Source: a virus (Duplodnaviria > Caudoviricetes). From it: a stretch of DNA of 64,000 bases. Below the pieces are notes generated by a model. The model was not told the DNA's origin, searched no databases, and worked only from the letters and a program-made list of their open reading frames with translations. The stretch spans positions 64,001 through 128,000 of IMG/VR virus record IMGVR_UViG_3300023218_000040. One strand, 5' to 3'. Below are positions 43,201-63,311 of this stretch, in pieces; the stretch's first letter is position 1; each line of letters opens with the position of its first letter. A program made the translations under genes and the position numbers.

Positions 43201-46200
43201 CTACCACGTATGGTTCGACATCTTGGATTCAAACATCGATCCGCTTCCTTCGGGCTCGCTTGCGAGCGCACGTGTGGCTCTGAATGGGAGTGAAGACGAT
43301 CTTGAGATTGCTACGATTGTGGCGGATGTCATTAATAACTTCCAGGATGGAAATGTGTTTTCAACAAACATACCACAGCCTGGATTTGAAGTAGTAGAGA
43401 TTACTAACTTGGAGGTTGGAGCATCTAGTGACATTGCTACTGATGTGGCAGCAACTACACCAGCGGGTGTAACGTTTGCCACGATCACGCAAGGAAACGG
43501 ACCTAACGCTGATCCGGCCACTACTGCCAATGGTCACAAGGTGGCTATTAATGCTACTGACAGCGGGATCGATATTGCTACCAAGACGGCTGCGGTGCTA
43601 GCGGCTGTTGATGCATTTGCTGAAACCCTTTCGGTTAACTCAACAGTTACAGTAGTGAACTCCGAGTCTGGAAACGTAACTGATGCTGTAGACATTGATG
43701 CTGGTGTTATGATCAGTATTACTCAAAATGGTTCTGGTTCCCTAAACACAGCACCACCATCGGGTGGAAACACTCTGGTAGAAGTAGCTGTGATTTCGTC
43801 GGATACCAATGTTAATGTTGCAACCAAGTTGGTTACAGCACTCCAGAGTGCAGACACGGACTTTGCTGACTCGTCGAACACCGAGGGAGTGTCTCCGATT
43901 GTTCGTGTGACGTTGGTAACTGCCGGTAGAGTCATGAATGCGAACGTTGGATTGTTCCTTACGCCTCCGATCATCACAGTACGATCTGGGAATGATGCCA
44001 CCCCAAGCGCTAATCCTTGGGGAGCGGAACAGATCGGATGTTTGTGGTGGAGACCAGCGAGGAAGTTGTTCATCGATTATCGGAGGATTTCTCCAGACTA
44101 TGAAAGCATGTCTGCTGTATGGGGTAAGCCACTGTTCTACAAGTCTACCATTACTAGGACCAATGATGTTGCAGAAGTTGAGCTATTCCAGTTTGATGAC
44201 CATGATAGAAACGGAATACCAGCAGATTTGAATGCAGAGCTTGGGCTTAAAGATGGTGATGAATTCGTGATTAGTATTCGTGGTGCAGATCAGCCCGAAT
44301 ACAACCTAACGAACGTTACTGCCACAGTGGCCAGCGCTACAACAGGTCTATTACAGTTTGAAATCGCAACTAATCCAGTCAGTCCTGGTACTGGAGACAT
44401 TGAAGTTGTGTTTGGACACATGGACATTTACGAGTGGGTGGAGTCCATGGTTCCTCCACAAGAGTGGGTTGATTTTGTTAGCGATTTGGATGATCCCACG
44501 CACCCTAATGGTACACCATTGAATGTAGATGAACCATCGTTCGTGGAGATCGAAGAAGAACTGGCTGATGGTCGAACCAGGAATTTGTATTACTTTTGGG
44601 TGCTGAATAGCACTGGTGATAACACCAAAAATGCACTACCAGTAGAAGGTGATCCTGGTAAGGAGTTCACATCGTTTGAGATTTCTCAGCGCTTAACTAA
44701 CCCAACGGCTCGTGGTCTTGCATGGTTCGCTCCAATTAATGAAAGTCACATGTACATTCATACCGATGGAGAAAAGGTGTTGGATGACTATGGTATTCAG
44801 ATTAACATTGACTCTCGTTGCATGCAGACTCACCATGAATTTGTTTTAGTATCGGAAAACAACCAGTTCTTCCCAATTCCAGAACAGATCGTAGAGAAGA
44901 TGATTGATTCTTTGAGTGGGCAGGATGCCAAAGGTAATACTGTGCCTTCCCCGTTGCTCGAAGTTACCGAGCGCTTTGGTTCCTGCTTCTTCCCTATACA
45001 AACGGTTTTCCCGGGCAGGGAAGCCGCTGTGGATGTGTATGTTACTGCCATCAACCGAATTCTGAGCAGGAGAGATTTGACTGGAACAGATGGATTGCTG
45101 AGTATCTTCCAATTGGATGAAGAATACGATGAGACTACCAACCCAACAGGTTTCTGGCAACGTGCTCCGTTTGAAGATCCATCAATTGATGATTTGACAC
45201 CGCTTGAAACGGTAGCGACGATTGCTGAGCGTGATCGTAGGCTGAGTTTTGGGTTCTACGTAGAGGGTGATTTGGTGCGAGTTGTGGACTCTGGATTTAT
45301 TGATGCCTGGGATGGCTCCAGCGTGGCTGCTACTTTCCAGCTTCGTGATACTGAATTCTTCCAGGTCTCCATCGATAACAAGACTGCCGCATTGAATGAC
45401 AACGTGGACAACAACGTTACTCGCTTCCGTAGTCTGTTTGGTCAGATCTATGATTTGTTGCTGGAGCGCATAGAGCAAAACGAGTTGATCTTCTCACTAT
45501 TGAATGAGATGCTTATTCAGAACCCAGATCCAACATGCGATTGGTTCTTCAAGACTTCGTATGTGACGACTCAAACCTTCACATCGATTGACACATCACC
45601 ATTCGTCCGACCAGATGAAGTGGCGGCTATTCGTGATGCGCTACTGTCTACTAAGCCATTCCGAACTAAGATACGTGGTGATATCAACACCATTGGTGGA
45701 ATCAACGACGACACTCCGGTTGAAATCCTGGAGTTCCCAGACCAGAAGATTACGTTGGTCGCTGACCGCTTGTCCTGCAATCTGCTGGACGACTGTGGAT
45801 GGGATACATTTGCCTGGGATACCAGAGACCTGCCTTGCGACCGTTGGGATCTTGCTACCTGGGACTTGCAGAACCTTGGTCGAGAAGAGTTCTACTTGGT
45901 CGAGCAAATCGTTGGTAGTAATGTTCAGACCGTATTCGAAATTGATGCTCTGTTTGATCCTACATTGTACGAGGTCAAGGTTGAGGTACGACAAAATGGT
46001 GTTTTGCAGCCAAATCTGGCGAACCAAATTACTATAGACAAAAGGCACGATAAGATCATCATCGACACGCAGTTTGCGTTGGGTCCAACCTTTACTGTGG
46101 ACGTACTACAGGCTCAGGGCTTCTACGGGGACAACGATCCAACCTTCATTGGCACGACCATAGAGGATACCCTGTTTCAGCCCGCTCCAAGCGATTACAA

Positions 46201-47512
46201 GCACGCTGTGGCCCGTAGCCTGCGTACTCTAAACAGCCCCGGCGGTCCATTCGACCCACGCTCTCAGATGATTGGGTGCACAGACCCGAATGACCCACTA
46301 GGAGGTCGCCCGGAGGAGCGTATCGTCACCGATGTGTGTGACAGTGTAAACATTTGCGTCATCAATGATCCATCTGATGCTTTGGCTGGATGGGATGCTA
46401 CTCCATGGGATGTTATTCCATGGGATATCGCTCCTGGTGACGTTGGTAGAAGGGTGTTTATTGTCAGTGTTGGTAAGCAGATTGAAGTTCCTGCTGGTAC
46501 TGAGATGTTCGCAACCAGCGAAGACATCACGGTAGTCGATCCGTTCGCTATCATTGGAACTGAACCTCAGTCCTTTAATCTCGCTCAGGTCGAACAGCAG
46601 AAGGGTGGCATAGGACCATTTAATGTTCTTACCGAGGGAGTCGAGTACGAGTCTTTGGGTATCTTCATGAATGGTATCCGAACTAAGATTCCATCAGATC
46701 AAGAATTCGTAACCGATGGTGCAACGCAGCAGTTCCAGACTACAATGGACACTGAAATTGCCGCCGTGTACCTGGATGGTTTCTTACAGGTGGAAGGCGT
46801 AGATTATACCCTTGATGTGCAACGAATGGAGATTACATTCACCGTTGTACCAACGCCAAATCGTTTGGTTAAGGCTGCATTCCTACCGTACATCGAGGCA
46901 GGAGACGTAATCAGATATCGATTCAATGGTTGGCCACTTGGTCCAGAAGGACGATTCACTGTTGGAACGTTGGTTGGTGGATTGACCGGTTTGCCGTACG
47001 ACATATTTCGTGGACAATTCACGTTCGATTCTCTACCACCGGCAAACGAGTTCTTTACCATTCAGTTTACCGAACCTAGATTGAATGGTCTACCGGAGTC
47101 TATTTTGGTCCGTATGCCAGAGATCGTTGCCGATATTTTGGATAACCATGAATCGTATGATGAACCGAATGGGTTCAATCAGTTCCGTCCAGTCGGAACC
47201 CGTATCATCAACAGTACAACGAATGAGATTTACATATGGAATGGCACCATGTGGAACCTGGATGCTGCATTGGCAATTGGTACACAAGTTTTCGTGACGA
47301 GAACTCAAGAGATTTGGCAGTTCAATGGTGTTGCCTTCTTTAAGGTGTTTGATGTTGGTGACACCTTCACCAAACCACCGGTTCTAGATTATCCACTATT
47401 TGGCCGTGGAATCACCTTCGGAACCTATGCTTTTGGTCAATCTGTTAATGCAAATGTGGAATATCCGGATGCTTACCAAGTCATTCAGCATTCTGGGGAT
47501 TGCCCACCGTAA
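37232..47512 (+). CDS. Giant virion baseplate protein (3426 aa; gp7-like position)
   Basis: Follows the gp6-like gene under a late promoter; YAWTPPIDYDK.INFSRYRW, HPWE..GY..EP.WW, W..W...L.Y and TKPFRTKIR motifs; beta-rich inserts. Confidence 0.75.
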   Translation: MAKQRRVFNNYPESLRTRQNNRETFIADDPLFEPEQANFLNGFIGDVSVLTDEDLARKPVVLEMTPERQKYQLSVGANFIDPDSQERVSAAFYTDMINQIEANGGFVDDPNRVFATNFYAWTPPIDYDKHINFSRYRWVGVGSADVQGEFITIEPSHSKTVIYEWDGSNMQQRNVSIVNGLPPIEPDGTFVEDASVAERFIYRSNGVIWVLLNLDMVPVIPTQTATLDIPSYFYVTRTGPEFNRPLVWKYSGDAGRWIPQPVIVSSEEPETIRDGMVWEDVRVGSERVLKVAANGAFSDLIYTASDGPPGAPGTDGEYIYDTRNFSDLDPNSWEANNWWRHHEDLSPEDAARAGEDQATRPIIEFWNGLEQVVGDVRDGRNDSPVFKKFAYDVGIDTIIDTGEGTTIFEYQRGSGRDDFVLGFPLVFNDTGEFIFELTLETDTSSFIGYKYFLDTNTNVTHGIWFKSDVLTNQEQDVNGIYEIPVGISSNPDHDILTAPSRSRMLGHMTSIMKAQSTFSGSEFGLNSYRWTNRNPTIGSTIIDAEQTHLRTLATLQRTSLDVPNSIRTMAKEYNKVLFRFTNRLNQYWNELRFNTGSGTLTVTAAEAVDGILTSMFIGRNEDFPFYLSDMGTYLETTIEAGVPTVINPDPRPIFIAPSAARVGASPCFVPDTFEDRDGVTRLRGHEGMIVPSFGDERDLVWLELQNRFFASVPTRKCSETSSFSSRFSRSNFFLQDFYGNFVPNTSTDPVDDVVTDYNAIVGPADGLRVFSAIQAVIAVFSGGQWLLREALTDEVFLNLNDNEYYIFNGQSVNLIDRWNNPFDFDYTTNEFREIVRRDFERFILFREQDFSENITFDEPDRFTWNYRSAGVEGHYLGIYRRIYNTVRPHSHPWEVMGYFIEPDWWRTQYVPDSTAADGTPRYGSAHSMWADFAAGVVDHPSGPIQRDKFVITAPVPVDASGNLLDPIAAGVVDESKVDKERIDDIWVYGDGAPEEQKFLDSPFNSFSVSLAGYLMKNGIWMDTLWSEIYIGIGEGQVFRAPHVINQTTLTRPAISILPVHLETDSDGNRVQSIGVNAWISEFVNINGGSPNTDFSRVVRNTSPALSWKTSGFINKNRTVISTLSRNEIPFTDVHVLLHKSQPIKSTFCSGVLITRESPNGFRVFGFDQFDPFFTVERPAVPIVGGQVILTEEFTVDFIDNSDPTITGGSVYPNQTLQRTFEVTEFSLPRSGTALDTARLSVIINGLRIKPQFLEVDPDANTVTVDEIIELQEGDEVSVQVVTTQSNPSTQTRQFIVNDVAFPYFVTGTGEFERIEYGRFFETATEVINFMIGYGRFLVSEGWVFDDISEAGSTRDWLLGAQRFARWVLEVQTPWNPNPQLDVLDEDLFFYSPIQNNAKFVSEFGQGQNIESIMNGAFGIVNRRSEPIETDQTFVSRIDDEVTVARVDTSNTDSEIYGLRVNLNEVEHVVLFSNITRFNDIVYDPVSGLAQSTLIVDSYRTLNWEGRAEANGYIIDGGTLLPNFEKQAFDITRLYDRFRTVDNVTKREQARNLYGFVPANQSRFNDPTKSLRERVTSDSSQYMIPIGAADRSRFDFSRGMIQANGTVRPIFAFARGSTIGRDNFFISEDWAWKLQEYGDTRRQTVQIKVDKSDFRDEVQTIQFGGPVVVTNNTIEVPDFNRNDLEADGDRWILPPEACEFGSPCNLKFPIDRNTGLIDVNHYAYYATLYDTESDISIIDHFHYDPEIDRFEPSARSLIDYETPLDPARYNTIPARPETTFIDMTMVNGSTLTINQDGDYFDISSTTARYRFWFSVSNVETTNVITPAGSTFAVDTTPGGGTVAGQVWTLNEAPTDDPHHVWYSVEDSEVSSVTFTGVSGSDFTVPHLIETQTEADYNGVGQNGIFEGGSGYAVADTITLSDGSVLTVDSETAGVIDGFTVTTTGSISIPLSGSQLTQTSTSGSGTGFTLTPRGNNILIVGDFFTVGVPGGFYHVWFDILDSNIDPLPSGSLASARVALNGSEDDLEIATIVADVINNFQDGNVFSTNIPQPGFEVVEITNLEVGASSDIATDVAATTPAGVTFATITQGNGPNADPATTANGHKVAINATDSGIDIATKTAAVLAAVDAFAETLSVNSTVTVVNSESGNVTDAVDIDAGVMISITQNGSGSLNTAPPSGGNTLVEVAVISSDTNVNVATKLVTALQSADTDFADSSNTEGVSPIVRVTLVTAGRVMNANVGLFLTPPIITVRSGNDATPSANPWGAEQIGCLWWRPARKLFIDYRRISPDYESMSAVWGKPLFYKSTITRTNDVAEVELFQFDDHDRNGIPADLNAELGLKDGDEFVISIRGADQPEYNLTNVTATVASATTGLLQFEIATNPVSPGTGDIEVVFGHMDIYEWVESMVPPQEWVDFVSDLDDPTHPNGTPLNVDEPSFVEIEEELADGRTRNLYYFWVLNSTGDNTKNALPVEGDPGKEFTSFEISQRLTNPTARGLAWFAPINESHMYIHTDGEKVLDDYGIQINIDSRCMQTHHEFVLVSENNQFFPIPEQIVEKMIDSLSGQDAKGNTVPSPLLEVTERFGSCFFPIQTVFPGREAAVDVYVTAINRILSRRDLTGTDGLLSIFQLDEEYDETTNPTGFWQRAPFEDPSIDDLTPLETVATIAERDRRLSFGFYVEGDLVRVVDSGFIDAWDGSSVAATFQLRDTEFFQVSIDNKTAALNDNVDNNVTRFRSLFGQIYDLLLERIEQNELIFSLLNEMLIQNPDPTCDWFFKTSYVTTQTFTSIDTSPFVRPDEVAAIRDALLSTKPFRTKIRGDINTIGGINDDTPVEILEFPDQKITLVADRLSCNLLDDCGWDTFAWDTRDLPCDRWDLATWDLQNLGREEFYLVEQIVGSNVQTVFEIDALFDPTLYEVKVEVRQNGVLQPNLANQITIDKRHDKIIIDTQFALGPTFTVDVLQAQGFYGDNDPTFIGTTIEDTLFQPAPSDYKHAVARSLRTLNSPGGPFDPRSQMIGCTDPNDPLGGRPEERIVTDVCDSVNICVINDPSDALAGWDATPWDVIPWDIAPGDVGRRVFIVSVGKQIEVPAGTEMFATSEDITVVDPFAIIGTEPQSFNLAQVEQQKGGIGPFNVLTEGVEYESLGIFMNGIRTKIPSDQEFVTDGATQQFQTTMDTEIAAVYLDGFLQVEGVDYTLDVQRMEITFTVVPTPNRLVKAAFLPYIEAGDVIRYRFNGWPLGPEGRFTVGTLVGGLTGLPYDIFRGQFTFDSLPPANEFFTIQFTEPRLNGLPESILVRMPEIVADILDNHESYDEPNGFNQFRPVGTRIINSTTNEIYIWNGTMWNLDAALAIGTQVFVTRTQEIWQFNGVAFFKVFDVGDTFTKPPVLDYPLFGRGITFGTYAFGQSVNANVEYPDAYQVIQHSGDCPP

Positions 47513-51952: not shown

Positions 51953-52585
51953 ATGGTAACCAGGACAACAAGAGATGTCATGGACTTGGGAGGACCGGGT
52001 GGAGTCAACCGTCCTATCACACTTGGTATTGATGTTGACGGAGACTGCGGTGCGAACTTTACCATCGATGGTGTAACCATTGGTGATACGGTCCCGTGTG
52101 ACGGAACATTCGTTAATTTGACTGCTACAAACTTAGTAGTCACTGGCACCATTGACGGGACTGGTGCTACTCTAATTGGTTCATGGCAAGCTACATACTC
52201 TGACATCGCTGAGAGATACCTTGCGGACAAGGAGTACGCTCCTGGAACTGTAGTGAAAATTGGTGGAGAAAAAGAAATCACCGCCACGACCCGTTCGGCA
52301 GATCCGGATGTGTTTGGTGTTATTTCCACTCAACCAGCGTACGTCTTGAATTCTGGCGAAGAGGGGCTATATTTGTCAGTGGTGCTGGTTGGTCGTATTC
52401 CAGTTCGAGTAGTCGGACCAGTAACAAAGGGTTCACGCATGATTGCTTCGAATGTTCCTGGTGTAGCACGGGCAGCCAAGGGTTCAGAGAAGGGATGCAA
52501 CGTACCAATCTTCGGTCGTTCATTGGAAGATGACGACCGTGAAGAAGAGCGTCTGGTAGAAGTAGCATTCGTAACCGTACGATAA
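51953..52585 (+). CDS. Tail fibre protein with peptidase G2/IMC-like autoproteolytic domain
   Basis: DIAERY....YAPGTVV.IGG...FGVIST.PAY.LN...VVLVGRIPVRV.G.V.KG..MI.S..PG.A. Confidence 0.65.
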   Translation: MVTRTTRDVMDLGGPGGVNRPITLGIDVDGDCGANFTIDGVTIGDTVPCDGTFVNLTATNLVVTGTIDGTGATLIGSWQATYSDIAERYLADKEYAPGTVVKIGGEKEITATTRSADPDVFGVISTQPAYVLNSGEEGLYLSVVLVGRIPVRVVGPVTKGSRMIASNVPGVARAAKGSEKGCNVPIFGRSLEDDDREEERLVEVAFVTVR

Positions 52586-53953: not shown

Positions 53954-54792
53954 TGAACAGGGGAATCCTTCTGTGTGCTCATGATAGCGATGTGTTCTGG
54001 TATGGGCGTATGGCGTATTCCTGTTCGCTCATGATACGAGAGCACATGGGAGATTACAACATCGCTTTGGTTACAGACCCGGAAACCTGGGAACGTCTAC
54101 TCGAAGCGTATCCCCGCTCGAAACAATTGATGCGACCGGTTCTGATCGAACGCCCCAACGATGGTAATCGCAGACCATTCACAATGGCTGGTGTCTATCA
54201 TAACTCTACTCGCTCTGCTTCGTACTCTTTGTCTCCATTCGATGAGACCTTAGTCATTGATGCTGATATGCTGATATTGGATGACAGATTGAACTTGGTT
54301 TGGGGATCTAATAACGATTTCATGATGAACACTCAGATCGGTAGAATGGTTTTTCCGCATTCTACTGAAATGATAGAAAGGCGATTCAAAGAGACTGGAG
54401 TACCTTTGTATTGGGCTACCGTGTTTTACTTTCGAAAGACTCCCGCTGTTCAGGATTTCTTTCAAGTAGTCAACTACGTGAAAATCAATTACAACTACTT
54501 TGGATTGCTCCACGGGTATAATACTGCAATGTATAGAAATGACTATGCCTTCTCAGTGGCAGCGCACTTCATGGGCGGGCGCACGGAGGGAGGATTTGTT
54601 AAGCCCTTACCTATCCCGTATTTGACATTCGCATGGGACAGGGACAAGATGATTCACATCGAGCGTGGTAGGGCCGTGTTTAAGGTGGATGGGTCTACTG
54701 TTCCGGTAACATCTATTGAGAGCAACGTGCACTTCATGAACAAGTACAGCTATGAAGAGTTTGCTGAAAGGATCATCGAAGCGTATGCGTAA
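53950..54792 (+). CDS. GT8-like glycosyltransferase
   Basis: SPFDETLVIDADML (DxD), YWATVFYF, YRNDYAFSVA. Confidence 0.75.
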   Translation: MMNRGILLCAHDSDVFWYGRMAYSCSLMIREHMGDYNIALVTDPETWERLLEAYPRSKQLMRPVLIERPNDGNRRPFTMAGVYHNSTRSASYSLSPFDETLVIDADMLILDDRLNLVWGSNNDFMMNTQIGRMVFPHSTEMIERRFKETGVPLYWATVFYFRKTPAVQDFFQVVNYVKINYNYFGLLHGYNTAMYRNDYAFSVAAHFMGGRTEGGFVKPLPIPYLTFAWDRDKMIHIERGRAVFKVDGSTVPVTSIESNVHFMNKYSYEEFAERIIEAYA

Positions 54793-55708
54793 ATTCAAGA
54801 GACAGCGTGGATACATCACTATCGTTCAACAAAGTGAAGGCATCGACTATCTCAGGATGGCTTATGCCTTGGCTCTTAGTTTGCGTGCCACACAATCTTC
54901 GGTGTCTCACCTTGCCGTGGCGGTACTGCCCGGAACAAAGGTACCAAAGAAGTACGCAAATGTATTCGATGAGGTTGTAGAGATTCCCTGGGGAGATGAT
55001 GCCGCTCGTGAGAAGTGGAAGATACAAAACAAGTGGAAAGTCTATCACATCACTCCATATGAAGAGACTGTCTTGTTAGATTGCGACATGTTGTTTCCTA
55101 TGGATGTGAGTCACTGGTGGAACGTGATGGCGCATAGAAAGATGTGGACTACTACAACCCCAAGAGATTTCCGTGGTAACCCGATCTTGAACTCCAAGTA
55201 TCGGGCGGTGTTTGAGAAGAATCAACTACCAAACGTGTATTCTGCATTCATGTACTTTAAGCAAGATGAGGAAGTTCACGAGGTATTCGATTACGCAAGG
55301 CGTCAGGTATACTTTTGGTCAGAGATGAGGGATTACTATCAGTATAGGCAGCTATCGGATGAAGACATTATTGCCTATTCTAAAAACCCTCGGTTTCGAT
55401 ATCATTGGAATCATCACTACAAGACTATTCCCCATAAGGTCAGTGGTGATCTCATGTTTGCGTATGCAATGAAAGCATTGGGAAGAGAAGAATGGGCACC
55501 ATCGGTTAGTCTGCCTACCTTCACACATATGAAGGCTGGGGACCAAAAGGTCAACTCTGACGACGATTGGAAGGCTGTTTTGTCATTGACAATGAAGAGG
55601 GATTTGACTCTTGTGATAGACAATTACGTACAGCGGTATCCGGTTCATTACCACTTGAAGGATTTCTTGAATGACGGAATCATTATCCGAAAGCTCGAAG
55701 AAGCTTGA
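54785..55708 (+). CDS. GT8-like glycosyltransferase (paralog)
   Basis: NKWKVYHITPYEETVLLDCDML, PNVYSAFMYF, TFTHMK; ATG 54785. Confidence 0.75.
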   Translation: MRKFKRQRGYITIVQQSEGIDYLRMAYALALSLRATQSSVSHLAVAVLPGTKVPKKYANVFDEVVEIPWGDDAAREKWKIQNKWKVYHITPYEETVLLDCDMLFPMDVSHWWNVMAHRKMWTTTTPRDFRGNPILNSKYRAVFEKNQLPNVYSAFMYFKQDEEVHEVFDYARRQVYFWSEMRDYYQYRQLSDEDIIAYSKNPRFRYHWNHHYKTIPHKVSGDLMFAYAMKALGREEWAPSVSLPTFTHMKAGDQKVNSDDDWKAVLSLTMKRDLTLVIDNYVQRYPVHYHLKDFLNDGIIIRKLEEA

Positions 55709-56234
55709 GGACTACTACCTCTACTACGAGGTACCAGAGAATTCTCGCACTGGAGCAATCAGGGCTATCAGTCCGCATAAGCTAAATGATTGGGAGAATA
55801 TGTCGTTTTTGAAAATCCCCGCCACGTTGGGTGCAAACCTCGTGAGTGGCAAGGAATCACTATTCAATTGGTCGGTAGTTTTCAATGAGCGAACACTGAA
55901 GATGGTGCTGGTGGAAACCAAACAGGCTCTTCCAAAAGCATGTCCGGTAAACAGCATACCACAAGATCAGGAAGATGCGGAAATCATTGTAAGCTGGGAT
56001 GGGACAAACTTCAAGGTGACTGCTCCCAAAGTTGAGTATGCTCTTGACGGTGTGAATCTAGACTTTTTTGTCACCGATGAAGATGAGCCTTATATTCTAC
56101 ATCAGCACTTTGGATGTCAGTTGATAGATGCGATAGATGGAAATGTGACAGTAGCGGGCATTAATGTTCCAGATGAATTCAGCGTATACACACGATGGTT
56201 GTACGAACGATATCAGTTGGTGATTGAAAGATGA
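55671..56234 (+). CDS. Hypothetical protein
   Basis: 187-aa ORF in the operon. Confidence 0.7.
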   Translation: MTESLSESSKKLEDYYLYYEVPENSRTGAIRAISPHKLNDWENMSFLKIPATLGANLVSGKESLFNWSVVFNERTLKMVLVETKQALPKACPVNSIPQDQEDAEIIVSWDGTNFKVTAPKVEYALDGVNLDFFVTDEDEPYILHQHFGCQLIDAIDGNVTVAGINVPDEFSVYTRWLYERYQLVIER

Positions 56235-57118
56235 AGATTAAGATTGAAGACACCGATGTAGTGTTCTTGTCCTACGACGAGCCGAAAGCAGATGAGTTCT
56301 TTGCTGATTTGAGAAGAAAGTGCCCATGGGCCAAGCGTGTTCACGGAGTCAAAGGATTCGACAAGGCGCACAAGGAATGCGCTCTGGCATCTGAGACAGA
56401 CCGGTTCATCACCGTAGATGGAGACAACATTGTGAATGAGGACTTCTTTTCCAAGGAGTTCGAGGTTCCGGACTCCCAGCAAGATTGTGTGTTTTCCTGG
56501 GCTGGCTTGAACATGATCAACGGGTTGATGTATGGAAACGGCGGTCTGAAATGTTGGCCCACAGCATTCGTCAAGAATATGAGAAGCCATGAGAATGCTG
56601 ACGATGGCGAGGGTTCGGTTGACTTTTGCTGGGATGAGCGGTACGTTCAGATGGAAGAGTCGTATTCTCAGACCTATCCGAATGGTAGTCCATTCCAGGC
56701 GTTTCGTGCTGGGTTCAGGGAAGGCGTCAAGATGACTTTGGACCGTGGAAGCCGAGTGAACCTGGATGAGATAGAGCTAGGCAGGCTTTGGCATGGTAAT
56801 ATCAAGAGGCTGGAAATCTGGTGCTCGGTTGGAGCCGATGTTGAGAATGGATTGTGGAGCATCTATGGAACCAGGGCTGGAGTATACTGGACCAATTTAC
56901 GTGATTGGGACCATAATCTGATTGCAGACTACGATTGGTTTCAGATGTTCTGGGAAATAGAGATTGAACCAAAGGGCGAAAGCCTCCAGGAAGAAACAAA
57001 GAAACTTGGTGATCGCCTTCGAGTTACTATGGGTTTGCAGATAGCCGAACTGGATGCCGACGCATCCCGGTTCTTCAAACACGTATACGTAGCACCAAGT
57101 AGAACAGGATATTCTTAA
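56231..57118 (+). CDS. GT-A fold glycosyltransferase-like protein
   Basis: VVFLSYDEP, RVHGVKGFDKAH, FITVDGDN, YGNGGLK. Confidence 0.65.
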   Translation: MKIKIEDTDVVFLSYDEPKADEFFADLRRKCPWAKRVHGVKGFDKAHKECALASETDRFITVDGDNIVNEDFFSKEFEVPDSQQDCVFSWAGLNMINGLMYGNGGLKCWPTAFVKNMRSHENADDGEGSVDFCWDERYVQMEESYSQTYPNGSPFQAFRAGFREGVKMTLDRGSRVNLDEIELGRLWHGNIKRLEIWCSVGADVENGLWSIYGTRAGVYWTNLRDWDHNLIADYDWFQMFWEIEIEPKGESLQEETKKLGDRLRVTMGLQIAELDADASRFFKHVYVAPSRTGYS

Positions 57119-58488
57119 TGCCGAGGAAACGTGGAGAAAAGCCGGAACAATACAAGGAGAGGATGATTGATCCAATCTCCTCGTCGTTCTGTGCGGCCAA
57201 ATGGCTGATGGCCACGATCAACCTGGGAGCAGGAAAGAGCCGTTCCTGTCATCACCCATCCGAGCATTCTATCCCCGTTGAAGAGGTTCAGCTCTCTCCA
57301 TCCGCTATTCATAACACGGAATTTAAGAAGCGTCAGCGAAGGCTAATGCTACAAGGTGAACGACCGATTGAGTGCAGTTATTGCTGGCGTATCGAGGATA
57401 TGGAGGAAAAGGGAACTGTAGCTGATAGAGTATTCTACACCTGTTCGTTCCAAGACCGTGATGTGATGAAAGCGACACGTATGTCCTGGAATGAAAACGT
57501 CATACCTAAAAACCTGGAAATCTCATTCGACCGCATTTGCAACTTCGCTTGTTCGTACTGTAGTTCGAACTACTCTACAACCTGGGCAAAGGATATCAAG
57601 ACGGCAGGTCCGTATCGAATTCATCCGGACAATCCAGCATCGAACTACTTCTCTAGAGATGGTTCGGATCATGAACCATACGGAAAGTACAATGATGGCA
57701 ATCCGTTTGTGCAAGCGTTTTGGGATTGGTGGCCAGAGCTTCGTGAGCATCTTGAGATCCTTCGGGTAACCGGTGGAGAGCCATTGATGAGCCCGCATTT
57801 CTGGAAGCTGACAGACCTGATCGAAAGGGAGGGTGTTAATCCGAACATGCAATTTGCTGTGAATTCAAACTTTGGTGGTAAGTTTGATCTCATTCAGCGG
57901 ATCACCGAGTTCAGCACCAAGATTCCCAAGTTCTCGTTGTACACATCGTGCGAAGCACACGGTAAGCAAGCCGAATATCTACGTGATGGACTGGACTATA
58001 ACTATTGGAAGGACAACGTTTGGTACTTTATCCGAAACGGTAAGTCCGAGTTCGTCACGTTGATGATGACGGTGAATGCCCTCTGCTTATGGTCAATCAC
58101 CGACCTGTATGACGATTTGCTTGAGATGAAAGCAGAGTATGACAACAATCATCCGCTGATTTCTTCCAACATGCTGCGATATCCTACGTTCATGTCTCCG
58201 CTGGTGCTTCCTGCTTACCTGAGAGAAGAGCGGGCTGATCACATCGAGTCTTGGTTGGACAGGAATGAGCGTGCTTCTGGAGTAACCGACTTCGACCGAT
58301 ACGGCATTCGTAAGCTGATTGCATATTTGAGAAAGGGGCAAGCCGAAAGCCAAAACCAGGAGTCAGATGAGTATTCTTTCTATCACTTTTATAAACAGTA
58401 TGATCAACGACGAGGCAAGAGCTTTCGTGACACTTTCCCAGATCCATTGATTGCTTGGTATGATGAGCTAGGGGAGAAGTATGAATGA
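57118..58488 (+). CDS. Radical SAM protein with N-terminal Cys-rich (twitch/SPASM-like) region
   Basis: CNFACSYC (CxxxCxxC), VTGGEPL; N-terminal C...CHH...CSYC. Confidence 0.88.
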   Translation: MPRKRGEKPEQYKERMIDPISSSFCAAKWLMATINLGAGKSRSCHHPSEHSIPVEEVQLSPSAIHNTEFKKRQRRLMLQGERPIECSYCWRIEDMEEKGTVADRVFYTCSFQDRDVMKATRMSWNENVIPKNLEISFDRICNFACSYCSSNYSTTWAKDIKTAGPYRIHPDNPASNYFSRDGSDHEPYGKYNDGNPFVQAFWDWWPELREHLEILRVTGGEPLMSPHFWKLTDLIEREGVNPNMQFAVNSNFGGKFDLIQRITEFSTKIPKFSLYTSCEAHGKQAEYLRDGLDYNYWKDNVWYFIRNGKSEFVTLMMTVNALCLWSITDLYDDLLEMKAEYDNNHPLISSNMLRYPTFMSPLVLPAYLREERADHIESWLDRNERASGVTDFDRYGIRKLIAYLRKGQAESQNQESDEYSFYHFYKQYDQRRGKSFRDTFPDPLIAWYDELGEKYE

Positions 58489-59282
58489 AGCACCTGTATG
58501 CTAATGGAGACTCAAGCACACACGGTGATGAGCTAGGAGTCATTGATGAAAATGGCACATACGACAAAGAATACCGTAACACGCACTGCTATGTTGGTCA
58601 GCTAGCAAAGTTGTACAATCTGGATGAATACTTCAACGATAGTGTGGGTGGTGGATCGAACGACCGCATCTACCGACGTACTTTGAAGTTTGTATCCGAA
58701 TGGATTGCTAGTGGGAGAAGCCCAGAAGATTTGTTTGTTGTCATTGGTTGGTCCAACGCCAGTAGAACCGAGTTCTACTATGAACCTCGGCTTGAAGAAG
58801 GTGACGAGTTCAACAAGACTGAAATGAGCAAGTATCCAGAAGAGGAGAGAAGGTACTATCCTATCTATGTTGGTATTCACAAGAGCAAGCTGTGGAACTT
58901 ACACGAAGATGATGTCTTGAAGGACTTTGCTGTCGCTTATAATCGTTGGTTTTCTTCCTTGCCAGCATCAATGACCAGAACCCTCAGCCACATCGTCGGT
59001 CTACAGGGAATATTGAAGTCATTTAGAATACCGTACGTGTTTACTAACGCTGGATGGATTCTGGAGATAGAGAAAACACAGAGCCAAGCATTGGCGTCCA
59101 TGGTAGACGAGAAGCGGTTCATTGGTATGTATGACCGTATGGAGACCTTCAGCGGATGGACATGGAAGAGCGGATTTCAAGGAAGGATGCCGATGGGGCA
59201 TCCCGATGAGAAAGCTCATGCAGCTTGGGCGAGGCGTTTGAAGTCTTACATAGAAGAACACAATCTAAGAGAAGCACCATGA
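58485..59282 (+). CDS. SGNH/GDSL-fold protein 1
   Basis: NGDSSTHG, GGSNDRI, IGWS, GHPDEKAH. Confidence 0.75.
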   Translation: MKHLYANGDSSTHGDELGVIDENGTYDKEYRNTHCYVGQLAKLYNLDEYFNDSVGGGSNDRIYRRTLKFVSEWIASGRSPEDLFVVIGWSNASRTEFYYEPRLEEGDEFNKTEMSKYPEEERRYYPIYVGIHKSKLWNLHEDDVLKDFAVAYNRWFSSLPASMTRTLSHIVGLQGILKSFRIPYVFTNAGWILEIEKTQSQALASMVDEKRFIGMYDRMETFSGWTWKSGFQGRMPMGHPDEKAHAAWARRLKSYIEEHNLREAP

Positions 59283-59386
59283 AGAAGTTTTTCAAGAAGC
59301 TATTCCGACCCATCACACATTGGTGGAAAATGCGTAAGATGAGGAAAGCCATAGAGCGGGGTGAAGACCCATTCATTTATGACTGA
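59279..59386 (+). CDS. Unannotated 35-aa basic amphipathic peptide ending DPFIYD
   Basis: MKKFFKKLFRPITHWWKMRKMRKAIERGEDPFIYD; ATGA overlap with the SGNH1 stop and 8-nt overlap with the SGNH2 start. Confidence 0.75.
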   Translation: MKKFFKKLFRPITHWWKMRKMRKAIERGEDPFIYD

Positions 59387-60080
59387 TATCATCTACACCA
59401 ACGGCGACTCCTTCACGCATGGCGTCGGCCTTAAGGACCACTCACGTTCGTACACACAACTCATGGCGACGGAACGTAATTGTGCTCTTTTCAACGATGC
59501 TTATCCCGGATCATCACACGACCGTATCCTAAGAACGACGATGAAGTTCGTAGGCAATACTCTCAATCGTAATATTTTTGTAATCATCGGTTGGGGATTT
59601 GCTCGACGTATGGAATTCTATTATGACCCGAATGTGGATGCAGAGGAAGATGAACTAAAGTACATCCGGTATTCTTCTGATCCGATAGATGAGCGAACAA
59701 AACACCGTTACCCTGATGAAACTTGCAGGGATTTTATCCTCCAGTATCATGAAGGTTTCACCAATCGGAATGCGGCTGGTACCAGGGCACTGACACGCAT
59801 CATCGCTCTACAGTCGTTTCTTGAAACGATGGAGATCCCATACCTATTCTTCAATTCTGCATGGATCATCCCTGGTGCTGATAGTGCATTAACTAATATG
59901 GTTAACATCAGGCGTTATTATGGTTTCCAGAATCCGGAACAGACGTTTCATAAGTGGACCTGGAATGCTGGGGCCAAGGACAGAACGGAGTTAGGGCATC
60001 CGGACGAGCAGGCGCACCAGATTTGGTTTAAGAATTTGAAGCACTACATTACACAGAAAGATCTGTGGGAAATGCACTGA
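59379..60080 (+). CDS. SGNH/GDSL-fold protein 2
   Basis: NGDSFTHG, GSSHDRI, IGWG, GHPDEQAH; ATG 59379. Confidence 0.75.
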   Translation: MTDIIYTNGDSFTHGVGLKDHSRSYTQLMATERNCALFNDAYPGSSHDRILRTTMKFVGNTLNRNIFVIIGWGFARRMEFYYDPNVDAEEDELKYIRYSSDPIDERTKHRYPDETCRDFILQYHEGFTNRNAAGTRALTRIIALQSFLETMEIPYLFFNSAWIIPGADSALTNMVNIRRYYGFQNPEQTFHKWTWNAGAKDRTELGHPDEQAHQIWFKNLKHYITQKDLWEMH

Positions 60081-61531
60081 TGGCAATCTTCGGTGTTAGC
60101 TGTGGCTTTCATGATGCTGCTGTTTCGGTAGTAAGTGGCAAGAAGATTTTGTTTGCTGGGCATTCAGAGAGATACAGCAAAAACAAGAACGACAAACATT
60201 TATGCGATGGTTTGATTCGTGAAGCACTAGAATGGGGCGATGTCGATACTTTAGTGTACTACGAGAAGCCATTCTGGAAGAAATTAAGAAAATGGTACGC
60301 TGGCCAGAAAAACGACTTCGATTACAAGTCGCATTTGAGACAATTCTTCGGAAATGTCCCAATTGAGACAGTTAGCCATCATGAGTCGCATGCTGCTGCT
60401 GGGTTCTATACCAGCGGGTTTAACGAGGCAGCCATCATCGTGGCTGACGCAATTGGTGAATGGGATACCCTGAGCGTCTGGGTTGGCTCAGGAGCGTCCC
60501 TGGAAAAGATATGGTCCACCCGCTACCCTGACAGTCTCGGACTGCTTTACAGCGCTTTCACGCAGCGCTGTGGATTCAAACCAAATGAGGAGGAGTACAT
60601 CCTTATGGGTGCCTCGGCGTTTGGCAGGCCGAGCTTAACTGAAGAGATACGTGATGAATTCATAGAGATCGGGGATGCTCATGAATTTTTGCTAAAGAAA
60701 AATGTCCACATGGGAATCGACGATTGGATGCCTAGAGCTTCAATCGAAGATCTAGCAGCAAGTATACAGAGAGTTCTTGAGGAATATTTGGTTGATTTGT
60801 TCGAATGGGTTGCAAGAGAGACTGGAAAAAGATATATTGTGTTCATGGGTGGAGTAGCCCTTAACTGTGTAGCCAATGCCAAACTTGCCGCAAGACGCAT
60901 TTTCGAAGATATCTGGATCATGCCCAATCCGGGTGATGCGGGTTCTGCCTTGGGTGCAGCACTCGCTTATAAGCGGGAACAAGTCCAGTGGACTGGTCCG
61001 TATTTGGGAACAGACATCGAGCGGGAAGTGGATATTGACGAAGCGATTCGTTCTCTCGAACGAGAGTATGTCATCGCCGTGGCTAATGGGCGTGCTGAGT
61101 ACGGGCCTCGTGCTCTCGGTAACCGTTCCATTCTCGCAGATCCAAGGTATCGCAACACTAAGAGCCGAGTGAACGATATCAAGAAGAGGCAACAGTTTAG
61201 GCCATTTGCTGCTAGTGTATTGGAGGAGAAGGCTGCTGATCACTTCGTGATGCCTCAGCATGTTGAAAAGTCTCCGTACATGCAATACACTTGGAGAGTG
61301 AAATACCCGAGATATGTACCAGCTATATGTCACGTGAATAGTACATCCAGGATTCAAACAGTCAACAAACAACAGAATTCGGTTTTTTACGCTTTGCTAA
61401 AACGATGGTACGAAAAAACTGAATGCCCGATGCTATTAAACACCAGCCTGAATATCAGAGGAATGCCGCTGGTAAACACTTGGGAAGATGCGAATAATTT
61501 CAGATGGGTTCACGATATTCCCATCTACTAA
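60080..61531 (+). CDS. Carbamoyltransferase (NodU/CmcH/TobZ family)
   Basis: GFHDAA, HHESHAAA, DAIGEW, SLGLLYSAFT, PNEEEYILMG, GGVALNC, PGDAGSALG, EYGPRALGNRSIL, RPFAAS, LLNTSLN. Confidence 0.93.
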   Translation: MAIFGVSCGFHDAAVSVVSGKKILFAGHSERYSKNKNDKHLCDGLIREALEWGDVDTLVYYEKPFWKKLRKWYAGQKNDFDYKSHLRQFFGNVPIETVSHHESHAAAGFYTSGFNEAAIIVADAIGEWDTLSVWVGSGASLEKIWSTRYPDSLGLLYSAFTQRCGFKPNEEEYILMGASAFGRPSLTEEIRDEFIEIGDAHEFLLKKNVHMGIDDWMPRASIEDLAASIQRVLEEYLVDLFEWVARETGKRYIVFMGGVALNCVANAKLAARRIFEDIWIMPNPGDAGSALGAALAYKREQVQWTGPYLGTDIEREVDIDEAIRSLEREYVIAVANGRAEYGPRALGNRSILADPRYRNTKSRVNDIKKRQQFRPFAASVLEEKAADHFVMPQHVEKSPYMQYTWRVKYPRYVPAICHVNSTSRIQTVNKQQNSVFYALLKRWYEKTECPMLLNTSLNIRGMPLVNTWEDANNFRWVHDIPIY

Positions 61532-61543
61532 CAGGAGAGGCAC

Positions 61544-62635
61544 ATGCCACACGGTAGATCATACGCAAGCTCACTTTCTAACGAAGTACGTCCAATAGAT
61601 GATTCGGAGGTAGAGTCTATGACCATAGGTCGTGATGCTCATGATGAGGATACAGTGACCGAGAGTATTCAGAAAGCACAGCGCCACTGGTCTTCTACAC
61701 CAGATGGAGCAGTGTTCTGGGGAACGTCCAACATTGTGGATGATCTTCCTCCTGGCCTTTACAAGTGCGCCCATCGTGATGACATCGGTGCGTGCCTTTC
61801 CAAGCTGATCATCGAGACTGACGATCTCATTGTTCTGCCAGACATGGTGTGCAATGAAGTCATTGACCAAATCAAAACGTTTTGGTCCAAATCCGTCCGG
61901 GATGCCATGGTATTACGTGGATTTCTCCACAAGCGTGGAATTCTGATGTATGGAGAGCCGGGTTCCGGTAAGACGTGCACCATCCAGGTTCTCGTTCAGA
62001 TGCTCATCAAGAACGGAGGCATCGCCATCTACGCAGAAGATCCATCCCTGTTGTCTGCATGCCTTCAGATGATTCGCCGTATCGAACCAAAGCGTCCGAT
62101 GATCGTGGTACTGGAGGACTTCGACACCTTGACCGACCGTGATCGTCGTGAAAACACGTGGCTGTCAGTGCTGGATGGCGAGGCCCAGATCGAGAACGTC
62201 GTATTCTTGGCTACCACTAACTATATCGATCAGCTTGATAAGCGATTCGTTGACCGTCCGTCCCGCTTCGACCTGATTGTTCCGGTGCCAATGCCAACTG
62301 CCAAGGCTCGTGCAGCGTACCTGTACAAGAAGGAGCCAAGCCTGTCCAGGGATGAGTTGTACGAATGGACAATGGCCTCGGAGGGTTTCTCCATCGCTCA
62401 CCTGAAAGAACTTATATTGTCAGTTAAGTGCTACGGCAAGAGCCTGGAGGATACGGTAGATCGCCTTCGCAGCCAGAAGAAGCGTGAATACAGACAAGAT
62501 GATTTGGAACGCCAAGCCAAGGGCTCGAAGGGCATCGGCTTCACTGGAGAAGGAATTGATATCGAGTCGTTCGATAACCGTGAATACTTTGATCAGTTTG
62601 TGACCGACCTGAAGGATCACGTGTGGAATGTATGA
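61544..62635 (+). CDS. AAA+ ATPase
   Basis: GEPGSGKT, VVLEDFD, ATTNY...LDKRF.DRPSRFD. Confidence 0.88.
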   Translation: MPHGRSYASSLSNEVRPIDDSEVESMTIGRDAHDEDTVTESIQKAQRHWSSTPDGAVFWGTSNIVDDLPPGLYKCAHRDDIGACLSKLIIETDDLIVLPDMVCNEVIDQIKTFWSKSVRDAMVLRGFLHKRGILMYGEPGSGKTCTIQVLVQMLIKNGGIAIYAEDPSLLSACLQMIRRIEPKRPMIVVLEDFDTLTDRDRRENTWLSVLDGEAQIENVVFLATTNYIDQLDKRFVDRPSRFDLIVPVPMPTAKARAAYLYKKEPSLSRDELYEWTMASEGFSIAHLKELILSVKCYGKSLEDTVDRLRSQKKREYRQDDLERQAKGSKGIGFTGEGIDIESFDNREYFDQFVTDLKDHVWNV

Positions 62636-63311
62636 CATCATCTTTCTTTCTCATCAGGAGCCATTGGCTGAAAACAACTGGCTGCAATTGAAGAAGAGGT
62701 TCCCAAGAGCAATGCGTGTCGATGGGGTAAGCCCCATAGTCGCTGCTCATAAGGCTGCTGCCCGGAAGTGTCGAACTCGGTATTTCTGGGTGGTTGATGC
62801 TGACAACGAAATTTGCTCTGGTTTCGACTTCAGCTTTCAATGGCCGAAGGATGATAATGTTCGTGATCGAGTGGCTGTCTGGAGAGCATACAATCCCATT
62901 ATTGGTTTGTCGTATGGGTATGGAGGAATAAAGCTTCTTCCCCGACTATCTGTCCTTGCTGTACCGGATAATGTGGTGGATTTCACCACGAGTATCAGTG
63001 AGCATTTCCATGTCATGGAGGAAGTAGCTTCTGTTACAAACATTGATACCTCTCCATTCGATGCCTGGAGGGCTGGCTTTCGAGAAGCAGCCAAACTGGC
63101 ATCACATACGATAGCCCGTGGGAACAATAAGGAGAATGAAGAGCGTTTGTCTGCGTGGTGCGCCGCTAAGCTCGGGAGGTATGGAAACTATTGTGCTCTC
63201 GGGGCTCGCTCTGGACGAAATCATGCATTGGATGGAGAGGATCTATCCAAAATAAACGATTGGAATTGGCTGCGGAGTAGATTTGATGAAGAATCAAAAC
63301 CTTCAATTTGA
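62628..63311 (+). CDS. GT-A fold glycosyltransferase-like protein (paralog of 56231-57118)
   Basis: IIFLSHQEP, RVDGV, FWVVDADN, YGYGGIKL, SPFDAWRAGFREAAKL. Confidence 0.65.
   Translation: MYDIIFLSHQEPLAENNWLQLKKRFPRAMRVDGVSPIVAAHKAAARKCRTRYFWVVDADNEICSGFDFSFQWPKDDNVRDRVAVWRAYNPIIGLSYGYGGIKLLPRLSVLAVPDNVVDFTTSISEHFHVMEEVASVTNIDTSPFDAWRAGFREAAKLASHTIARGNNKENEERLSAWCAAKLGRYGNYCALGARSGRNHALDGEDLSKINDWNWLRSRFDEESKPSI

Follow-up and report, generated by a model that had tools for sequence, protein, structure and literature searches.

Tyrosine acyl shuttles that feed SGNH transferases are established for DltX/DltB/DltD and PatA/PatB, in which an MBOAT loader handles an acyl group, a short C-terminal Phe-Ile-Tyr motif (FXYXXF; FIYANF in NgPatA) contains an invariant Tyr, the motif belongs either to a microprotein of its own or to a partner enzyme, and the partner is an SGNH-fold protein with Ser and His (PMC12148441). 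The nearest precedent, from the same enzyme superfamily as the carbamoyltransferase (CT) considered here, is HypF/HypE, in which a CT with YrdC-like and Kae1-like domains modifies the terminal residue of a partner protein's flexible tail, the Cys of a C-terminal Pro-Arg-Ile-Cys motif (PMC12130793). The genes sxtI, sxtJ, sxtK and sxtL are adjacent, sxtK being 165 nt long (published sxt papers), and crocagin biosynthesis combines a short basic peptide with a C-terminal aromatic tripeptide (CgnA), an esterase-like hydrolase (CgnD) and a CT (CgnI) in one cluster (PMC10070186). The subject of the present analysis is a 35-codon open reading frame (ORF), referred to as the micro-ORF, which is located among two DUF6071 genes and a short class III CT gene in a viral DNA stretch of 64,000 nucleotides (the window; positions 64,001 to 128,000 of IMG/VR record IMGVR_UViG_3300023218_000040, which spans 204 kb and is estimated to be 55% complete). 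According to the original prediction, the CT loads a carbamoyl group onto the Tyr at the end of the micro-ORF product, and the neighbouring SGNH-fold proteins pass it to a glycan. As judged from sequence comparison, the Tyr-tailed microprotein, DUF6071 and the short CT constitute an undescribed and widespread module, in which the tail would be a dedicated partner of the other two proteins and probably a swinging arm for transport of the carbamoyl group.

The Tyr shuttle named in the original prediction is real, and the module shares with the DltX and PatA systems the invariant Tyr in a short C-terminal motif, the occurrence of this motif in free or fused form, and the SGNH-fold partner. It differs in the proposed loader (a soluble, ATP-dependent CT) and in the group to be moved (carbamoyl), in having no transmembrane (TM) helix and only cytoplasmic components, and in the fusion of the tail to the SGNH-fold protein rather than to the loader. 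The hexapeptide Phe-x-Tyr-x-x-Phe is absent: the window peptide ends in Phe-Ile-Tyr-Asp-stop, and with 0–3 residues past the Tyr the x-x-Phe part is missing. With HypF/HypE the module has in common the two-domain CT and the acceptor at the end of a flexible tail (Pro-Phe-Ile-Tyr in place of Pro-Arg-Ile-Cys). The HypE acceptor is a Cys sulphur on a PurM-like protein and the product is dehydrated to cyanide, whereas here the acceptor would be a Tyr oxygen on a microprotein or SGNH-fold protein, with no cyanide implied. In crocagin biosynthesis, unlike here, the peptide is consumed for the product; CgnB, CgnC and CgnE have no counterpart in the module, and CgnD is not detectably related to DUF6071 by sequence.

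The parallel with sxt holds in part. The comparison with SxtK was made through members of DUF5989, which were found in 115 of the 301 Bacteroidota genomes sampled and end in APFIYTLF, a perfect FXYXXF, past a TM helix; like the window peptide, they are microproteins beside a class III CT, which in sxt are followed by the GDSL gene sxtL. They differ in the full hexapeptide, in long CTs and SxtJ as companions, and in TM helices of the LAPVIIVLLLLGFLIVIGG type, which separate the basic N-terminus from the FIY tail. The window peptide lacks any such helix and lies outside the DUF5989 model: a PF19451 search with it (E up to 10) returned no match, and hhalign of the tail alignment A3 against the DUF5989 alignment A4 paired only the four residues PFIY (probability 11.5%). 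The basic peptide with a DPFIYD end is confirmed, and this tail recurs in the family profile; with only PFIY in common and no TM helix, membership in DUF5989/SxtK or DltX is largely refuted by these comparisons. A Bdellovibrionales metagenome-assembled genome (MAG; locus L037) holds both systems, with a long CT and a DUF5989-like TM microprotein (PLVYSLF) at 1049–1228 (− strand) and a short CT with a soluble peptide (QDPYIYK) at 5847–5993 (+ strand).

The micro-ORF and its family

The micro-ORF (59279..59386, + strand) starts with ATG at 59279 and stops with TGA at 59384–59386. Its product, MKKFFKKLFRPITHWWKMRKMRKAIERGEDPFIYD (35 aa; 11 Lys/Arg and 4 Asp/Glu), begins with MKKFF, has a basic N-terminal part and ends with GEDPFIYD, the tail PFIYD corresponding to residues 31–35. 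It contains no hydrophobic span and no TM helix (11 Lys/Arg in 35 residues), and its N-terminal part was modelled with low confidence. The sequence ATGA is common to its start and to the stop of the upstream gene (58485–59282), and its final 8 bases overlap the start of the downstream gene (ATG 59379, ATGACTGA). It is thereby part of a tightly coupled run on the + strand that consists of a radical S-adenosylmethionine (rSAM) gene (57118–58488), a DUF6071 gene (58485–59282), the micro-ORF (59279–59386), a second DUF6071 gene (59379–60080) and the CT gene (60080–61531). The micro-ORF is a genuine gene and a member of a widespread, unnamed family of very small Tyr-ended proteins, which bears out the claim that it had been left unannotated between two genes to which it is coupled.

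Among 2,372 six-frame segments of the window, a family profile built with the window peptide left out picked the micro-ORF at E=1.1e-4, the next best segment having E=2. The exact peptide has no match among 15 billion proteins and has therefore never been gene-called. A DNA search with the region against 50,697 phage records matched nothing, a word-based protein search with the peptide gave no candidate, and Pfam and PHROGs returned nothing meaningful for it; in the ESM Atlas, only weak unnamed neighbours (0.84) were found. Sequencing runs with a match comprised three DNA metagenomes from one study, with no RNA run among the matches listed.

For comparison, 80 related loci were fetched in three ways, by searching the CT against viral contigs, with the peptide alignment, and with the CT alignment against one genome per prokaryote species; the last route contributed 67 loci with CTs 40–55% identical to that of the window. 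The tail, a basic stretch followed by D-P-[FY]-[IL]-Y and 0–3 residues, was present in 69 of the 80 loci, as a separate micro-ORF in 46 and as an in-frame fusion to the C-terminus of DUF6071 in 23. Across all 80 loci, the motif occurred in 61 of 8,680 same-strand reading-frame tails and in 3 of 11,213 on the opposite strand, and one of these three was a genuine fused tail. In about 30 loci, the stand-alone micro-ORF ends between 8 bases inside and 49 bases before the CT start. The Tyr is the sole invariant column in alignment A3 (46 tails, MAFFT), and the residues past it vary (69 unique tails; P in 23, none in 19, K in 15, D in 7, others including H and ED). The family profile matched 175 clusters (E≤0.001) among 1.84 billion representative proteins; nearly all of these are 29–79 aa long with the match at the C-terminus, and the members named in source records are called "hypothetical protein". 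A chance ORF was considered and rejected in view of the leave-one-out profile match and the motif counts on the two strands. A frameshifted remnant of a fused tail was likewise rejected because, in many lineages, stand-alone copies start at an ATG of their own and retain a conserved N-terminal part.

Fused tails were found in a Streptomyces group (ending RSANRDFLYP), in a further Streptomyces group (tail SDRSDPYIYP, the gene following immediately on the CT), in Sorangium, in Magnetococcales and in others. By hidden Markov model search, a DUF6071 copy was detected in 54 of the 80 loci, and 26 of the 80 have none within 6 kb of the CT; a few loci hold peptide and CT without detectable DUF6071. 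In the reverse direction, the peptide profile gave four credible matches in 401 Pseudomonadota genomes, all of them arranged as DUF6071, tail and CT. The expected co-occurrence of PFIY micro-ORFs with CT and SGNH-fold genes was hence borne out in both search directions. The fusions are read as a Rosetta-stone link between tail and DUF6071, and the adjacency as a link between tail and CT. The trio is probably a portable carbamoylation module: phages and many bacteria encode it as three separate genes, and elsewhere its tail is fused to DUF6071. The idea that the module is a phage invention has to be given up, given CT homologues (40–55% identical) with the same tail in many bacterial phyla, often fused to DUF6071. 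A literature search found no paper mentioning DUF6071 and none that connects carbamoyltransferases to an acyl shuttle.

The Ralstonia jumbo phage RsoM2USA is the nearest isolate relative for these genes and has the same gene order as the window. Its 108-base gap between gp201 and gp200 contains an unannotated 36-aa ORF that ends in KQDPFIYK and overlaps the upstream stop (L001 8983–9093, equal to MG752970.1 125891–126001, minus strand). RsoM2USA carries three DUF6071 copies (gp203, gp201 and gp200), each annotated as hypothetical.

Several further arrangements were observed. Four viral contigs (L008–L011, 5903–6870) place a peptide RKRDPFIYK just before a CT that is reduced to a Kae1-like N-domain of 289 aa and has no YrdC-like domain; no SGNH gene is nearby, and the neighbours look bacterial (secreted repeat proteins and an adenylate-cyclase-like membrane protein). 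In L016 (6001–6997), the peptide KNDPFIYED is immediately followed by a 295-aa DUF6071-like protein of the GDS type, and no CT lies within 6 kb in either direction. L062 (5518–5607) and L066 (2387–2473) contain a second type of micro-ORF, ending in KKSNGHIY, past an SGNH-like gene; a KFIY or DFIY peptide is also located upstream, so that each locus has two Tyr-ended peptides. Protein P0001 (75 aa) consists of two tandem microprotein copies, each ending in DPFIYK, and may be either a read-through of two adjacent micro-ORFs or a true duplication.

Partner enzymes and the docked tail

The CT gene (60080..61531, + strand; start most likely ATG 60080, with one base common to the preceding stop) encodes 483 aa with a Kae1-like N-domain and a YrdC-like C-domain and without a dimerisation domain, compared with 682 aa in GdmN. 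It was assigned by Pfam (Carbam_trans_N 2.1e-47, Carbam_trans_C 1.1e-51), by PHROG 1601 (Nol-like CT) and by PDB profile matches (NovN 1e-99, GdmN, TobZ). Residues H11, H100, H104, D123 and D286 correspond to GdmN H27, H133, H137, D156 and D333 and are invariant in 49 homologues, H11 aligning with the catalytic His27 and the other four with the Fe ligands. The protein is by these alignments a NodU/TobZ/CmcH-class CT, with the His-His-Asp-Asp metal site and the catalytic His conserved.

DUF6071 copy 1 (58485..59282, + strand; 265 aa; PF19547 E=2e-19) carries N-G-D-S at residues 7–10 and G-H-P-D-E-K-A-H near its C-terminus. Copy 2 (59379..60080, + strand; 233 aa; PF19547 E=6.7e-13; start taken as ATG 59379) has NGDSFTHG and GHPDEQAH and is 39% identical to copy 1, the alignment extending throughout. 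The model of copy 1 (predicted local distance difference test, pLDDT, 85; predicted template modelling score, pTM, 0.86) had exclusively SGNH/GDSL proteins as its best structural matches (Foldseek probability 1.0; VIA gave the same result) and could be superimposed on TesA (1jrl) with Z 15.1 and a root-mean-square deviation of 3.5 Å over 168 aligned residues. According to the model, DUF6071 has the SGNH alpha/beta fold, and the description of the flanking genes as SGNH proteins agrees with both the Pfam assignment and these structural matches. Ser10 (block I, G-D-S) and His239 (block V) are invariant across 32 DUF6071 homologues; the window copies read NGDS, and most bacterial copies read NGCS. 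Past strand 3, a conserved G-W-S...R..E is found and no G-x-N-D, and a conserved H-P-x-E-x-x-H takes the place of canonical block V, with no Asp three residues before H239. The proteins open directly with the catalytic motif, and they therefore have no signal peptide and would be cytoplasmic. A third, more divergent DUF6071-like gene is located about 5.5 kb past the window end (G000:C1:133477-133872, − strand; L118; E=4e-12; 272-aa open frame); the phage record yielded only a single Tyr-tailed peptide.

A complex of CT and peptide was modelled with purpose-made alignments of both partners. The score was 0.63 (runs 0.63, 0.59 and 0.65), and the highest among three controls was 0.00. When the procedure was calibrated, 58 of 80 solved complexes attained this mark, as did 2 of 110 mismatched pairs. 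The partner had a pLDDT of 51 or more, and 45% or more of the contacts were common to the runs. The confident interface comprises peptide residues 31–35 (PFIYD) only, on the one side, and CT residues 10–11, 39, 74, 76, 124–125, 155, 158–159, 162, 168–169 and 209–212 on the other, with Tyr34 in contact with 124, 125, 155, 158, 168, 169 and 210. These contacts were mapped by way of the GdmN alignment onto GdmN crystallography (PMC9633730): residues 10–11 correspond to loop 1, which holds the catalytic His27; 74 and 76 to the end of helix 1; 124–125 to the oxyanion-hole pair G157/R158, beside the Fe ligand D156; 155–162 to helix 2; and 168–169 to loop 3. In GdmN, these residues together form the acceptor pocket (PMC9633730). 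In the model, the tail occupies the CT acceptor pocket, beside the equivalents of the catalytic His27 and of the oxyanion hole, and the complex modelling proposed along with the original prediction has hence placed the Tyr tail where a substrate would be expected to enter.

A candidate carbamoyl relay and its alternatives

Streptomyces loci, including that of S. malaysiensis, contain genes for a phosphatase, a DUF6071-tail protein, an rSAM protein, a class I/II aminotransferase, a CT (about 52% identical to the window CT) and an O-methyltransferase, with a TruD-like gene within about 5 kb. By gene content they match the published malayamycin set (MalL, MalJ, MalK, MalD and MalF plus a TruD-like enzyme; PMC8724604), from which orthology of the CT with MalD is inferred; the DUF6071-tail gene, situated between phosphatase and rSAM genes, is not mentioned in the malayamycin review (PMC8724604). 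The same gene set was found in a Bacteroidota MAG (L065), together with two 2-oxoglutarate-dependent oxygenases, and in a Cystobacter MAG (L034), together with a gene resembling 5-enolpyruvylshikimate-3-phosphate synthase (NikO/MalO-type). Malayamycin/nikkomycin-type sets, including methyltransferases, accordingly occur in these two MAGs outside the actinomycetes, and their gene content suggests uncharacterised high-carbon nucleoside antibiotics in both phyla. In another Streptomyces group, a DegT aminotransferase gene is next to the module. The pathways that contain the module are varied, with one CT each in the stretch examined. These bacterial contexts probably point to amine acceptors of nucleosides or amino sugars; nothing supports the glycan that had been named as the carbamoyl target. 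The phage record differs from the MalD cluster in that its 204 kb (about 55% complete) gave no aminotransferase or TruD match; MBOAT (PF03062) and AT3 (PF01757) matches were likewise absent, in agreement with the predicted independence of MBOAT proteins.

We favour, with a probability of roughly 40%, a soluble, MBOAT-independent covalent relay, in which the CT would carbamoylate the tail Tyr to an O-aryl carbamate and DUF6071 would pass the group to the acceptor. In CTs of this family, the YrdC-like domain forms carbamoyl-AMP from carbamoyl phosphate and ATP, and this would be the starting reaction. The Tyr tail would then enter the acceptor pocket of the Kae1-like domain, as the model suggests, and its hydroxyl group would be carbamoylated in the way that HypF modifies the C-terminal Cys of HypE. 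The O-carbamoyl-Tyr may subsequently move to the active site of DUF6071, which would deliver the carbamoyl group to an otherwise poor acceptor; in loci of the malayamycin and amino-sugar types, this is probably an amine, which would become a ureido group. Serine hydrolases classically accept carbamoyl groups from aryl carbamates; a carbamoyl-Tyr, being an aryl carbamate, would therefore be a chemically good donor to serine enzymes.

Several points weigh against this relay. The confidence of the peptide model is low (51–61), its contacts exclude the metal ligands H100, H104 and D286, and a model of a fused protein shows no docking in cis (residues 262–285 with pLDDT <50). DUF6071 appears to lack the Asp of the D-x-x-H block, and its block III Asn is not evident. 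With 26 of 80 loci showing no DUF6071 within 6 kb of the CT, the SGNH step would not be universal. The carbamoyl-Tyr and carbamoyl-Ser intermediates are inferred. A relay would be slowed by the long life that carbamoyl-serine enzymes usually have, and no earlier case of protein-bound O-carbamoyl-tyrosine is known to us. In published accounts, the malayamycin CT MalD is treated as a direct carbamoyltransferase (PMC8724604).

The description of MalD would suit a non-covalent adaptor or pocket lid, in which the tail binds the acceptor pocket without being carbamoylated and its Tyr only positions the true acceptor; in variants of this explanation, the tail completes the substrate site of a monomer-type CT or tethers DUF6071 for channelling. 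Co-occurrence, fusion and docking data fit this equally well, as do the pairs of peptide and CT without DUF6071. The pocket of dimeric GdmN requires loop 4' of the other monomer (PMC9633730), and the window CT (483 versus 682 aa) lacks the dimerisation domain that supplies this loop. However, the modelled Tyr34 lies against the oxyanion-hole residues 124–125, where an acceptor hydroxyl would sit, and there is therefore little room for another acceptor; the absolute invariance of Tyr, rather than Tyr/Phe, in the 46 aligned tails suggests that the hydroxyl group matters; and the conserved Ser/His site of DUF6071 is left without a role. Such an adaptor or lid is possible and rather doubtful. Docking in the acceptor pocket, together with translational coupling to the CT, would also be consistent with an autoinhibitory plug or regulator that blocks the pocket and saves carbamoyl-AMP until a substrate or partner displaces the tail. 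The fusion to DUF6071 and the invariant Tyr would then be unexplained, and it would be unusual for an inhibitor to be constitutively expressed together with its enzyme across phyla, so that we regard a plug as highly unlikely.

If the CT model is taken to treat the tail as a substrate, the microprotein might be the precursor of a crocagin-like peptide made by the ribosome and modified after translation (RiPP), with a basic leader and an F-I-Y core; rSAM or other enzymes would modify it, the CT would carbamoylate it and DUF6071 would cut it off, to give a small product derived from the peptide. The crocagin precursor is 21 aa long, its leader is basic and its core comprises the three residues I-Y-W; a carbamoyltransferase (CgnI) and a peptidase resembling esterases (CgnD) are encoded in its cluster, and a glycosyltransferase in related ones (PMC10070186). 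Flanking rSAM genes in phage-like loci would fit as well. A precursor fused to its own enzyme is known from the borosins. Window-type rSAM genes are, however, absent from most bacterial loci, and only the CT, and often DUF6071, is constant among neighbours that range from nucleoside-antibiotic and amino-sugar to phage genes. In nucleoside clusters, the nucleoside should be what the one CT present in the examined stretch acts for. A DUF6071 profile search of PDB sequences (E up to 10) did not detect CgnD, neither binding proteins of the CgnB/E type nor transporters or peptidases were observed, and the residues past the Tyr vary (none, K, D, P, H, ED). The precursor explanation is hence considered unlikely. 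The probability is close to negligible that the peptide is a soluble true homologue of the membrane-bound DUF5989/SxtK or DltX proteins that acts on the membrane's outer face with an unseen membrane partner: P-F-I-Y, the vicinity of class III CTs and a basic, W-rich N-terminal part are common to the micro-ORF and DUF5989 families, but the PF19451 search and the four-residue hhalign pairing speak against homology, as do the missing hydrophobic span, the lack of an MBOAT or AT3 gene in the record and the lack of a signal peptide in DUF6071.

Phage neighbourhood and significance

Tail-fibre-like genes are located upstream of the module, and the other neighbours are phage-specific. The rSAM gene at its upstream end (57118..58488, + strand) encodes a Twitch-domain protein (NCBIfam NF033640, N_Twi_rSAM, 1.4e-88), and its stop overlaps the start of DUF6071 copy 1; homologues adjoin the module in L001, L014 and L019 and, more weakly, in L055, L056, L059, L061 and L073, in phage-like loci only. 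The module is bracketed by two paralogues, a protein of no recognised family (56231..57118, + strand; no Pfam or NCBIfam match) and a phage-specific family protein (62628..63311, + strand), with tblastn homologues near the CT in L007, L055, L059 and L061. An AAA+ ATPase gene (61544..62635, + strand; Pfam AAA 3e-14) is directly downstream of the CT gene. The phage protein at 54752..55708 (+ strand; no Pfam match; tblastn homologues near the CT in L032, L043 and L048) is a weak lead to a GT-A glycosyltransferase: a minority of its atlas neighbours carry Glyco_transf_8, Nucleotid_trans or Mannosyl_trans3, and PDB sequence searches with two glycosyltransferase-like neighbours gave nothing. Further upstream, a giant ORF of 3,426 aa without a Pfam match (37232–47512, + strand) is situated just before the tail-fibre-like genes, one of which (51953–52585) shows a weak match to the Peptidase_G2 intramolecular chaperone.

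If the relay is correct, the Tyr-shuttle logic of cell-envelope acylation would be extended to carbamoylation in the cytoplasm, with an ATP-dependent Kae1/YrdC enzyme as the loader. DUF6071 and a microprotein family of at least 175 clusters, often missed by gene callers, would be given a first function. Jumbo phages and nucleoside-antibiotic clusters would share the module, and malayamycin-type clusters would contain an unrecognised gene that is essential for carbamoylation. The CT steps of natural-product clusters would then be annotated and engineered differently, and malayamycin producers offer a tractable system for a direct test of the relay. For phages, the micro-ORF and its partners would mark a conserved three-part modification module that adjoins the tail-fibre genes.

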